Assembly: GCA_015064415.1 (NCBI GenBank)
Contig: SVSG01000005.1
Location: 29,273 to 93,272 of the forward strand
Origin: Oscillospiraceae bacterium
Lineage (GTDB): Bacteria > Bacillota > Clostridia > Oscillospirales > CAG-272
Reading direction: 5' to 3'
Length of the DNA: 64,000 nt
Position numbers and translations under genes: made by a program. Under the pieces are notes generated by a model, which saw only the letters and a program-made list of their open reading frames with translations, did no database searches and had not been told where the DNA came from. Shown piece after piece: positions 17,301-20,731 of this stretch (position 1 is its first letter; each line of letters starts with the position of its first letter).

Positions 17301-17328
17301 TTGACAATTTTTTTTAATGTGTTATAAT
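17301..17328 (+). promoter_or_regulatory. sigmaA promoter of the T-box leader
   Basis: TTGACA (17301-17306), 16 bp spacer, TATAAT (17323-17328) with extended -10 TG. Confidence 0.85.
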
Positions 17329-17348
17329 GTTGTAGTAAGATTATAAGC

Positions 17349-17613
17349 CCACGAAAGAAGGTTATCCGCCTTACGTCTCACCGCAAAAAGTGCCGCCATC
17401 ACTTGCAAGCGGCCGTGCGAGGGGATGCGGTATTTCCCTTTGAAGTGGATGCAGGAAAACCCCGTTTTCGGGCAGGTAGTTGCATACGGCAGGCACCGTT
17501 ACCCACCAACAGACCTTGTGTGTCGAGTGTTGCCCGACGGGCTTCCATTCGGGTGGTACCGCGAGCGACCTTTCGCCTCGTCCTGATTTATTCGGGATGG
17601 AGGTTCTTTTTTT
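17349..17613 (+). ncRNA. T-box riboswitch (transcriptional), specifier probably Phe
   Basis: Stem I base CCAC-gaa-AGAAGG ... CCTT-tgaa-GTGG (17349-17448); stem II; CCGTTA (17496-17501); T-box GGGTGGTACCGCG (17551-17563) pairing with CTCGTCCTGA (17577-17586); competing terminator 17576-17613 with T run. Confidence 0.9.
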
Positions 17614-17645
17614 ACTTGAAACAAAGGAAAGGATAAATAGACAAA

Positions 17646-17846
17646 ATGGAAAAAGAAAAAGTAGCCCGCATCAACGAGCTGGCGCACCTTTCCAAGGAGC
17701 GTACGCTTACGGATGCGGAAAAAGCGGAGCAGGCCGCGCTTCGTGCGGAATATATTGCCGAGATCCGTGCTTCCTTCGGCGGCATGCTGGAGAACACGGT
17801 GATCGAGCGTCCTGACGGCACGCGAGAAAAGCTGCCGAAAAAATAA
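17646..17846 (+). CDS. DUF896 / YnzC-family small protein
   Basis: ARINELAHLSKERTLTDAEKAEQAALRAEYI signature; 66 aa. Confidence 0.85.
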   Translation: MEKEKVARINELAHLSKERTLTDAEKAEQAALRAEYIAEIRASFGGMLENTVIERPDGTREKLPKK

Positions 17847-17864
17847 CGAAAAAGGAGGGGTTTG

Positions 17865-18317
17865 ATGGAACCCGTAAAGTTATATACCGCAAGCCCCGAT
17901 GACACTGAGCGCGTGGGCGCTGAGCTTGCGGAAAAGCTGCTTGCTGACAGCGCGCTCCCCCGTTATATCGCACTTTACGGCGATCTCGGCGTGGGAAAAA
18001 CTGCCTTTGTACGGGGAGTGGCAAGTGTGCTGTGCCCCGGTGCGGCGGTGCGCTCCCCCACCTTTGCCCTTGTGAACGAATACCGCGGCAAGCTGCCGAT
18101 CTTCCACTTCGACATGTACCGCATCACGGATGAGGACGATCTGTATTCGATCGGATATGACGATTACCTTTTGCGCGACGGCGTGATCCTGGTGGAATGG
18201 AGTGAAAATATCCCTTATGCCCTGCCTGAGCACTATTTGCGCGTAACGATCACCAAAAATGACCCAAAAGCGCCGGAAAGCCGCGAAATTTTGATGGAGG
18301 AGGTATCTTTATGCTGA
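17865..18317 (+). CDS. tsaE: tRNA t6A37 biosynthesis ATPase TsaE
   Basis: LYGDLGVGKT Walker A, SPTFALVNEY, HFDMYR, LVEW; RBS AAGGAGG. Confidence 0.95.
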   Translation: MEPVKLYTASPDDTERVGAELAEKLLADSALPRYIALYGDLGVGKTAFVRGVASVLCPGAAVRSPTFALVNEYRGKLPIFHFDMYRITDEDDLYSIGYDDYLLRDGVILVEWSENIPYALPEHYLRVTITKNDPKAPESREILMEEVSLC

Positions 18318-19006
18318 TACTGGCTTTGGACAGCACCGCCATTGTTGCAAGCGTGGCACTTTGCCGTGACGAGCGTGTGATCGCCTCCTTCACCGTGAAA
18401 AACGGCAACACGCACAGCGAAACGCTCTTACCGATGGTAGAGGCGGTATTGAGATCCGCCAATCTGAAGATCGAGGATATCGATCTGTTTGCCTGCAGCG
18501 TGGGCCCCGGCTCCTTTACCGGTGTGCGCATCGGCACGGCAACCGTGAAGGGGCTTGCTTTTGGACAAAATAAAAACTGCATCGGCGTTTCCACGCTGGA
18601 AGCACTTGCAGAGAATCTGTTTCCCTTTGACGGGATCATCTGCCCCGTCATGAACGCCCGTCGCGGTCAGGTCTACAACGCGCTGTTCCGCTGTGAAAAC
18701 GGTACGCTTATCCGCCTTTGCGAGGACCGTGCGCTCTCGGTAGCAGACCTTGCCGCCGAGCTTGCCGAAGCGGGACTTCCCTTTGCCCTTTGCGGCGACG
18801 GTGTAGAGGAATTCAAGCGTCTTGCGCCCAATTCCGTCCCTGTGAGCGTCTCTGCGCTTTTGGAGGATCAATCTGCCGTCTCGGTCGCAAAGGTCGCTTT
18901 GCGCCGCGCAAATGCGGGCGAGAGCGGCACGGACTCAGCGCTTGTACCCGTTTATCTGCGCATGCCGCAGGCAGAACGCGAAAGACTGGAAAAATTAAAA
19001 CAATAA
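18311..19006 (+). CDS. tsaB: tRNA t6A37 biosynthesis subunit TsaB
   Basis: LILALDST, HSETLLP, GPGSFTGVRIG, NARRGQVY, PVYLRMPQAER. Confidence 0.95.
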   Translation: MLILALDSTAIVASVALCRDERVIASFTVKNGNTHSETLLPMVEAVLRSANLKIEDIDLFACSVGPGSFTGVRIGTATVKGLAFGQNKNCIGVSTLEALAENLFPFDGIICPVMNARRGQVYNALFRCENGTLIRLCEDRALSVADLAAELAEAGLPFALCGDGVEEFKRLAPNSVPVSVSALLEDQSAVSVAKVALRRANAGESGTDSALVPVYLRMPQAERERLEKLKQ

Positions 19007-19030
19007 ATCCTTCCCTGAAAGGAGCATATC

Positions 19031-19483
19031 ATGAAAAAACTGATTATCGGATGTGACCACGCCGCCCCCGAGCTGAAAAACATTGTGCGCGACCATCTGA
19101 TCGCGCGCGGCTTTGACGTGGAGGACGTGGGCGTACACACCACAGATAGCTGTCATTACCCCGATATTGCGCGCAAGGTTTGCGAAAAGGTGCAAAACGG
19201 CGAGCGCGAAATGGGGATTCTTGTGTGCGGCACGGGCATCGGCATGTCGATGGCCGCCAACAAGCACACGGGCATCCGTGCTGCCTGCTGCTCGGACACC
19301 TTCAGCGCGCGCCTGACGCGTGCACACAATAACGCCAACGTGCTGTGCTTCGGCGCACGCGTGGTGGGTGCGGGTCTTGCCCTTGATCTGGTGGACGCCT
19401 TTGTGGACACCGCGTTTGAGGGCGGCAAGCACCAGACTCGCGTCGATATGGTGATGCAGATCGAGCGCGAGCAAAAAGCGTGA
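19031..19483 (+). CDS. rpiB: Ribose-5-phosphate isomerase B
   Basis: GCDHA, CGTGIGMSMAANK, HNNANVLCFGAR, FEGGKH. Confidence 0.95.
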   Translation: MKKLIIGCDHAAPELKNIVRDHLIARGFDVEDVGVHTTDSCHYPDIARKVCEKVQNGEREMGILVCGTGIGMSMAANKHTGIRAACCSDTFSARLTRAHNNANVLCFGARVVGAGLALDLVDAFVDTAFEGGKHQTRVDMVMQIEREQKA

Positions 19484-19484
19484 T

Positions 19485-20234
19485 ATGCTGAGCTTTTCTA
19501 CCGTTGCCGACGTCCTGCGCGCGACCGCAGGAACGGATATGGCACCCGCCACCTCCGCCGTGATCGTGGCGGCTGGTAGCTCCACTCGCATGGGAAAGGG
19601 CGTTTCCAAGCAATTACTGAAGCTCGCGGGCGTGCCCGTTCTGGCGCGCACCCTACGCGCCTTTCAGCAATCCGGCTATATCGACGAGATCGTGGTCGTC
19701 TCTCGCCCCGAGGACATGCGCGAGATCAGCGAGCTCCTGACGAAATACGGCATCACCAAGCCCGTACGCCTTGTGGCAGGCGGTGCCACGCGTGCCGACT
19801 CCGTCAAGCGCGGCTTTGCCGCCATCAGCAAAAAAGCCAAATATGTGGCCATTCACGACGGCGCACGTTGCCTTATCACCCCCGCAATGATCAAAAAGGT
19901 GCTGCGCGCGGCATATCTGCACCGCGCGGCCACGGCCGCCTGCACGGTCACGGACACGGTAAAGATCGCCACCAAGCGCGGCTTTATCGAGCGCACCGAA
20001 GACCGCGAGCGCGTGTGGCTGGCGCAAACGCCGCAGGTGTTTCACACCAACCTTTACCGCGCGGCGCTGGCAAACGTCAAGGACAACACCCTGACCGACG
20101 ATAACCAGTTGATCGAGGCGATCGGTTATCCCGTCAAGCTGGTGGATTGCGGCGCAGAAAACCTCAAGATCACAAGACCCGAGGACCTGCCCCGCGCCGA
20201 GGCAATTCTTGCTGCAAGGAGGGCCAAAAAATGA
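19485..20234 (+). CDS. ispD: 2-C-methyl-D-erythritol 4-phosphate cytidylyltransferase
   Basis: [39 protein letters not shown]. Confidence 0.95.
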
Positions 20235-20731
20235 GGATCGGACACGGTTACGACGTACACCGATTGGTACACGGGCGCGCGCTCATTCTCGGCGGTGTGA
20301 ACATCCCTTTTGAAAAAGGGTTACTTGGACACTCCGACGCGGACGTGCTGACACACGCCGTGATGGACGCCTTGCTCGGTGCCGCCGCGCTCGGTGATAT
20401 CGGCAAGCATTTCCCCGACAGCGATCCCGCCTACAAGGGCGCGGACAGTCTGATGCTTGCGCGCGAGGTGGCGAAGCTGCTTCTCGCCCAAAATTACCGC
20501 GTTTGCAACGTGGACGCCACCGTATTGGCGCAAGCGCCCAAGCTCGCGCCCCACATCCCGCAAATGCGCGAAAATCTGGCGCTGGCGCTGGGGCTCCCCG
20601 TGGATGCCGTCAGCGTAAAGGCAACCACCGAGGAGGGGCTCGGCTTTACCGGCACCGGTGAGGGCATTGCCGCCCATGCGGTGTGCCTCTTGGAACAGCT
20701 CCCCCACGCGCAAAAATTGCAGACGCTATAA
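20231..20731 (+). CDS. ispF: 2-C-methyl-D-erythritol 2,4-cyclodiphosphate synthase
   Basis: [41 protein letters not shown] at 20231 overlaps the ispD stop (ATGA). Confidence 0.95.

Follow-up and report, generated by a model that had tools for sequence, protein, structure and literature searches.

Phenylalanine (Phe) T-boxes of Firmicutes (Rfam family RF00230) precede pheS-pheT and share one layout, in which a promoter is followed by stem I with a Phe specifier, stem II, stem IIA/B with CCGTTA, stem III, the T-box sequence with its UGGN bulge, and an antiterminator that competes with a terminator. A different build is known from the actinobacterial ileS T-boxes with an ultrashort stem I, conserved and compact designs that naturally do without the stem I platform and regulate translation. 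The aminoacyl-tRNA synthetases themselves are, as a general phenomenon, subject to displacement by horizontally acquired copies. Sun et al. 2013 (PMC3766115) name duplication and specificity change as the processes that have mainly shaped T-box regulons, and Wels et al. 2008 (PMC2494555) report 8% of T-boxes in front of genes whose function is unknown or has no relation to amino-acid metabolism. The leader described here, at positions 17343-17588 of a 64,000-nucleotide stretch of DNA from an Oscillospiraceae bacterium (positions 29,273 to 93,272 of contig SVSG01000005.1, assembly GCA_015064415.1; hereafter the window, to whose plus strand all coordinates refer unless stated otherwise), would belong to the unrelated-gene class of Wels et al. 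2008, with the difference that its cause can be traced, namely to loss of the synthetase genes. It has the same layout as the Firmicutes Phe T-boxes but no synthetase gene behind it, and it has lost the motifs of AG bulge and distal loop. Most probably, it is the Phe T-box of an ancestral pheS-pheT operon that was orphaned by a deletion and is now a decaying sensor; its origin as a pheST leader orphaned by clean deletion we regard as demonstrated at the level of sequence comparison. As in other cases of synthetase displacement, the native pheST has given way to a foreign one, the difference being that the newcomer arrived with a T-box of its own and that the T-box of the departed copy was left standing before other genes.

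That the leader once served pheS is indicated above all by its counterparts in the same genus (G003, G016, G033, G034 and G035 being same-genus relatives of G000, the genome that holds the window). By blastn it was matched in 31 of 36 sampled same-genus genomes, and in all 29 loci retrieved a pheS gene lies directly behind the leader homologue, the encoded PheS proteins being 78-100% identical to one another's type; DUF896, tsaE, tsaB and rpiB are found within 1.5 kb of the leader in none of the 29. Compared with the G033 and G034 pheS leaders, the window leader is 73-75% identical over roughly 314-334 nt, and synteny agrees with common descent. The giant gene upstream has syntenic counterparts in both of these genomes, and the window shares with G034 not only this gene but also a terminator and a promoter: a hairpin equivalent to the intrinsic terminator that closes the 2279-aa gene upstream (17248-17277; 13-bp stem, 9 GC pairs, T-run), which shields the leader from transcription coming from upstream, also precedes the leader in G034, and our promoter scan found the G034 pheS leader to be preceded by the same promoter, with 12 of 12 consensus positions, that stands at 17301-17328 of the window (TTGACA, a 16-nt spacer and a TG-extended TATAAT).

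Among the larger loci (n = 4), G035, G003 and G034 have the order leader, pheS, pheT, DUF896, tsaE, tsaB and rpiB, with G035 and G003 running on into ispD, ispF and rpe, while the G033 contig stops inside pheS. In G034, G035 and G003 the DUF896 ATG follows the pheT stop after just 3-5 nt, so that in those species the DUF896 cluster is probably co-transcribed with pheST; no coding-strand promoter-like site was found near the 3' end of pheT in G034. Genus-wide, the genes for synthesis of N6-threonylcarbamoyladenosine (t6A) and those of the methylerythritol phosphate (MEP) pathway therefore probably ride on a Phe T-box transcript. When the placement of leader and DUF896 was read from a table of the genus's 39 other species representatives, not one (0/39) had the two contiguous as in the window; they lay on one contig, 3.41-3.49 kb apart, in 24 species and on separate contigs in seven, with one of the two found and the other not in a further seven and neither found in one.

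These loci bear directly on what the T-box is for. The original prediction had seen here a tRNA-sensing circuit for position-37 modification capacity, with a leader orphaned by a rearrangement as its alternative, and it is the alternative, in the form of a clean pheS-pheT deletion, that stands, whereas the circuit is contradicted by pheS directly behind the orthologous leader in all 29 same-genus loci. Direct adjacency of leader and DUF896 was found in none of the 39 other species of the genus. A T-box that evolved and was selected as a link between tRNA sensing and position-37 modification capacity (t6A by way of TsaE/TsaB, N6-isopentenyladenosine, i6A, by way of dimethylallyl pyrophosphate, DMAPP) is, to our minds, extremely improbable. 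It would account for the gene content downstream, and the short distance behind pheT, with its probable co-transcription from a T-box-led operon, is in its favour. Against it, besides the missing direct arrangement, DUF896, tsaE, tsaB and rpiB are missing within 1.5 kb of all 30 pheST loci taken from the order's other genera, and four genomes of other genera in the same family all keep tsaE-tsaB-rpiB, with neither a T-box (E <= 0.01) nor DUF896 found within 1.5 kb in any of the four. This means that the linkage of pheST to the DUF896-tsaE cluster is genus-specific and that there is no sign of selection for a T-box at those loci. A leader that is orthologous to pheS leaders and is shedding its tRNA-docking motifs does not suit a dedicated circuit either.

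The deletion itself can be placed at 17624-17648, where, by alignment with the relatives, a ribosome-binding site of the pheS type leads into the start codon of DUF896. The AAAGGA-type site of the window aligns with the pheS ribosome-binding sites of relatives, and pheS and DUF896 both open with ATG and an A/G-rich run; pheS-pheT (~3.4 kb) is excised exactly, so that the DUF896 start codon is now in the position of the pheS start. Excision would have taken place between the alike A/G-rich 5' ends of pheS and DUF896, and microhomology could have mediated it. Such a clean junction might also arise from an artefact, be it a wrong join of leader and DUF896 (the original prediction had itself pointed to a possible misassembly at about 17620) or a misbinned pheST contig with the true pheST in the missing 19% of the genome, and an assembly of 2.25 Mb in 43 contigs that is 81% complete lends this some support. 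We nevertheless find it very unlikely, since the junction is crossed by three contigs from other sequencing runs: record 2 of X1 (1053 nt) spans 17262-18314 with 0 differences, record 11 of X2 (262 nt) begins at 17600 and extends into DUF896, and record 18 of X7 (598 nt), which comes from another study and year, spans 17221-17818 with 6 differences. A fourth, record 24 of X9, ends at 17590, short of the junction. The join of leader and DUF896 is thus no misassembly. In the X7 strain contig at 18224-18320 (tsaE end and tsaB start), 21 differences fall within ~100 nt, compared with 6 in the preceding 598 nt; recombination may have produced this tract, or the contig may come from another species.

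Where the phenylalanyl-tRNA synthetase of this genome now comes from is seen on another contig of G000, C13 (described here by its stretch L040), which carries the sole pheS. Its PheS is just 37-45% identical to the full-length PheS of the genus, no C13-type PheS was found in other genus members, and native PheS and PheT queries on G000 match C13 alone, at 39% and 32%; a second pheS or pheT is not found in the assembly, which speaks against an artefact. PheS of the C13 type occurs at 80-96% identity in many metagenome-assembled genomes (MAGs) of uncultured gut Clostridia, Oscillospiraceae and Acutalibacteraceae, and at 88% in another genus of the same family. This wide occurrence might be taken to favour a misbinned contig, but DNA likeness to those MAGs is limited to leader, pheS and pheT (L040 ~6040-9904) and ends at the cassette borders, whereas G016, G034 and G033, the closest genus relatives, match the flank at L040 2623-3930 (genes for a YbaK-like editing protein and for endonuclease III) at 81-83%, a level that resembles that of the window's own genes. 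A genus-like flank together with similarity that stops at the cassette borders makes C13 a native contig with a foreign cassette. An acyltransferase on C13 has a single 70% match (G034) among five genomes, which is too weak alone, and flank DNA was therefore used to place the contig. The cassette has its own T-box leader of 86 bits with canonical AGAGA and distal-loop motifs, which answers affirmatively the question, raised with the original prediction, of whether pheST elsewhere has a T-box of its own.

The cassette is adjoined by a tRNA-Val(CAC) gene (L040:5769-5845, minus strand), and the stretch around that gene (L040 5573-5848) matches several places in relatives. Just 3' of the foreign pheT lies a gene (L040:10531-11787, plus strand) whose 418-aa product carries a Card1-like endonuclease domain (PF09002, E 7e-7); used as query, it went unmatched in five same-genus genomes, and it may be part of the same acquired island. 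Presumably, the deletion in the window came after, or together with, the gain of this T-box-pheST cassette, which would have made the native pheST dispensable. Exchange of this kind need not be confined to G000: 22 of 100 other genomes of the order, from 9 families, have a distant PheT only (31-34% to the native type), and with at least two PheT types distributed patchily across the order, displacement of the synthetase seems recurrent there. One of those 22, G134, has a PheS just 42% identical to the type of the window genome, a possible third type.

How much of the riboswitch is left was judged first from the covariance model. The search of 17200-17700 with an E-value threshold recovered the leader with RF00230 as best Rfam match, spanning model positions 1-219 and scoring 37.1 bits (E 9.4e-7 in the 501-nt search, 9.9e-7 for the genome). 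This falls far short of the gathering score of 93 bits, at which Rfam returns zero matches in the whole 64-kb window. G000 holds five T-box matches in all, the other four preceding leuA, pheS-pheT, cysE-cysS and the gene of a pyridoxal-phosphate (PLP) enzyme, and the window leader is by far the weakest. The five orthologous pheS leaders score 71.4-101.1 bits, and the RF00230 cut-off is passed by one of them (G003, 101.1 bits), the other four remaining at 71.4-81.7.

The elements themselves are nonetheless readily assigned. Stem I (17349-17448; fold -35.4 kcal/mol) keeps its helices, with altered tRNA-docking motifs, and holds the specifier UUC (17434-17436) within a TTTC that is conserved in the aligned relatives, several of which have a G directly after UUC; the alternative register, UUU at 17433-17435, likewise encodes Phe. 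The codon UUC agrees with tRNA-Phe(GAA), which G000 has in one copy with discriminator A73 and a CCA end (no tRNA genes were found within the 64-kb window), and the orthologous leaders precede pheS. Stem II and the stem IIA/B pseudoknot region, placed by the Rfam alignment, occupy 17449-17507 with CCGTTA at 17496-17501. The antiterminator with the T-box sequence (17548-17587) has the same sequence pattern and energy (-12.8 kcal/mol) as in relatives, and its UGGU bulge (17554-17557) complements the ACCA end of tRNA-Phe. It competes with the terminator (17576-17613: a hairpin at 17576-17603 of -16.0 kcal/mol with one bulged A, and a U-tract to 17613), 17576-17587 being common to both, and 33 nt separate the end of the U-tract from the DUF896 ATG at 17646. 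Much of what the original prediction had said of the leader is hence borne out, including the consensus sigmaA promoter, CCGTTA and a mutually exclusive terminator about 30 nt before DUF896; a Phe-type specifier holds as well. Its description as a complete T-box holds for the T-box sequence, antiterminator and terminator but not for the AG bulge, distal loop, K-turn, stem II and pseudoknot, all of which are altered.

To describe these alterations the leader was aligned with 29 homologues, with counts taken from 28 (the truncated L020 was left out) and from columns that are at least 90% conserved. From stem I to stem III it deviates at 13 of 64 conserved columns, where the 28 relatives have 0-7 deviations and the two nearest 0; in antiterminator and terminator it deviates at 2 of 40, the relatives at 0-5 (Fisher p = 0.043 for the 5' versus 3' contrast). 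Ten of the 13 deviations fall in stem I. The AG bulge (17385-17389) reads AAAAA where 28/28 relatives have AGAGA, owing to G to A changes at 17386 and 17388, and the distal (apical) loop of stem I (17398-17408) has ACT at 17401-17403 where 28/28 have GGC, so that GGCUG has become ACUUG, with one additional base just upstream. According to PMC11404447, these two motifs make the double T-loop platform that stacks on the tRNA elbow. Both halves of the platform are therefore changed at columns that are all invariant among the 28 relatives. Further deviations affect the kink-turn (K-turn), both in its 5' strand (17354) and in its 3' strand, where GGAG is changed to GAAG at 17443, the flanks of the specifier loop (17364, 17365, 17431), the stem II motif (GGUGAA to AGGAAA; 17453, 17456) and the pseudoknot partner (17504), with columns 17453, 17456 and 17504 conserved in 26-28 of the 28 relatives. 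GA dinucleotides are present on both K-turn strands, and although the motifs of K-turn, stem II and pseudoknot are altered, a shifted register could still form.

The X7 strain adds a time axis to this picture. The deletion is present there and the consensus G is kept at 17401 and 17402, which means that part of the erosion at least postdates the deletion and is still polymorphic; X7 differs from the window at four positions inside the leader, all in stem I. The terminator, too, has changed, its -16.0 kcal/mol comparing with -18.9 to -22.7 kcal/mol in four relatives (3-7 kcal/mol weaker). Taken together, an eroded decoding half, an intact discriminator and a weakened terminator are what we read as a decaying sensor. 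On this reading the pheS promoter, as the only evident one, would now drive DUF896-tsaE-tsaB-rpiB-ispD-ispF, and transcription would have to pass the leader terminator. The promoter scan found no promoter-like sites (>=9/12) between 17329 and 20875, although weak promoters may escape it, and so no independent promoter in the 17613-17646 gap, an option considered with the original prediction. The decoding half would be devoid of the motifs for docking the tRNA elbow and for supporting the codon-anticodon helix, with the 3' discriminator half intact, and the leader may thus act mainly as promoter and leaky attenuator, with little and at best a weakened dependence on tRNA-Phe.

A regulatory capture with the same origin, in which the leader would remain a working tRNA-Phe sensor that gates DUF896, tsaE/tsaB, rpiB and ispD/ispF with a retuned stem I, is possible, albeit on balance doubtful. 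Specifier UUC, antiterminator, terminator and the UGGU bulge, which fits the A73-CCA of tRNA-Phe(GAA), are intact, the helices of stem I still fold, and the 3' half deviates at so few conserved columns; in addition, there is no further promoter-like site before 20876, and with tsaE and ispF in single copy, selection should ensure that read-through stays possible. Since T-boxes of the ileS type sense tRNA without any elbow platform, a still-functional leader stays alive as an explanation, though in contrast to that type the window leader has a long stem I, a platform mutated within one species and a transcription terminator. Weighing against capture are the changes in both platform halves, K-turn, stem II motif and pseudoknot at columns that are (nearly) invariant in 28 relatives, a score ~35 bits below the nearest orthologues, and a stem I that varies between strains while the 3' part does not. 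The weakened terminator also fits compensation for lost antitermination.

For our preferred reading of a decaying sensor there are, in turn, points that do not sit easily with it. The features cited for capture are one, as the leader retains its specifier, UGGU bulge, antiterminator and a terminator that looks functional. The genes tsaE, tsaB, ispD and ispF are probably essential, and a dead sensor combined with a good terminator in front of them would be harmful, which suggests that some antitermination persists. The contrast between 5' and 3' halves is marginal and could reflect too little time since the deletion. With 81% completeness of the assembly it is possible that the native pheST sits elsewhere, and the order of gain before loss is a reconstruction. 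The sequencing runs in which the stretch was found are of DNA or unclassified type, none of them RNA, and read-through, tRNA dependence and the transcription start of the leader are likewise predictions from the DNA.

Behind the leader, where a synthetase, biosynthesis or transporter gene would be expected, six other genes run from DUF896 to ispF, and Pfam agrees with the gene list of the original prediction. DUF896 (17646-17846; 66 aa; PF05979, E 4.3e-20) is the first and its protein is 92% identical to the G034 counterpart, which follows pheT there. Next are tsaE for t6A synthesis (17862-18317; PF02367, E 1.5e-36), which is single-copy as the sole above-cut-off match in the assembly, and a tsaB-like gene (18311-19006; PF00814 in its short form, E 1.1e-28), whose likely identity as TsaB is suggested by its length and its place next to tsaE. 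They are followed by rpiB of the ribose-5-phosphate isomerase B family (19031-19483; PF02502, E 3.3e-59), ispD (19485-20234; PF01128, E 4.8e-65) and ispF (20147-20731; PF02542, E 1.3e-70), again single-copy in the assembly. The ispF match begins at residue 29, and since the listed open reading frame (ORF) overlaps ispD, the real ispF start is probably further downstream. After ispF comes rpe behind its own weak promoter-like sites, and at 20778-20805, also after ispF, lies a 12-bp GC-rich hairpin with a T-run on the minus strand only; a clear U-tract for the plus-strand end of the operon after ispF was not found. In relatives, G003 has a 10/12 promoter-like site close to the tsaE end, and G035 has a ~1.7-kb insertion (L036 12357-14081) between DUF896 and tsaE, a gap of 15-45 nt in the window and G003.

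As for the wider surroundings, the gene convergent to rpe (21683-22984, minus strand) encodes a 433-aa BspA-type leucine-rich repeat protein (PF13306, E 7e-51). The 2279-aa ORF upstream of the leader (10355-17194, plus strand) has as sole Pfam match a SASA carbohydrate-esterase domain at residues 1744-1996 and shares only ~40% identity with the syntenic genes of G033 and G034, compared with 82-92% for neighbouring genes. Its product looks fast-evolving and is probably surface-associated; a 2341-aa ORF that overlaps it on the opposite strand is probably spurious.

A search at the level of listings found no literature that links a T-box to tsaE or DUF896. Should the orphan leader still answer uncharged tRNA-Phe despite its lost platform, which we consider unlikely if not far-fetched, in a genus where the same genes may already be co-transcribed with pheST under a Phe T-box, then Phe starvation would in this species directly switch on t6A synthesis and two MEP enzymes. 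The locus would then be a natural case of riboswitch capture by unrelated essential genes and a test of how much stem I loss is tolerable to a transcriptional T-box. On the decaying-sensor reading, which we prefer, a T-box in front of t6A and MEP genes would be a by-product of gene loss and no new regulon, and a tempting false lead is removed; automated regulon catalogues can include 'unrelated' T-box targets of such origin. What the window then offers is a dated snapshot of a riboswitch after loss of its cargo, in which promoter, discriminator and terminator are kept, the docking motifs erode and the terminator is weakened, and with it a documented case of one synthetase displacing another where each of the two copies, the gained and the lost, had its own T-box.

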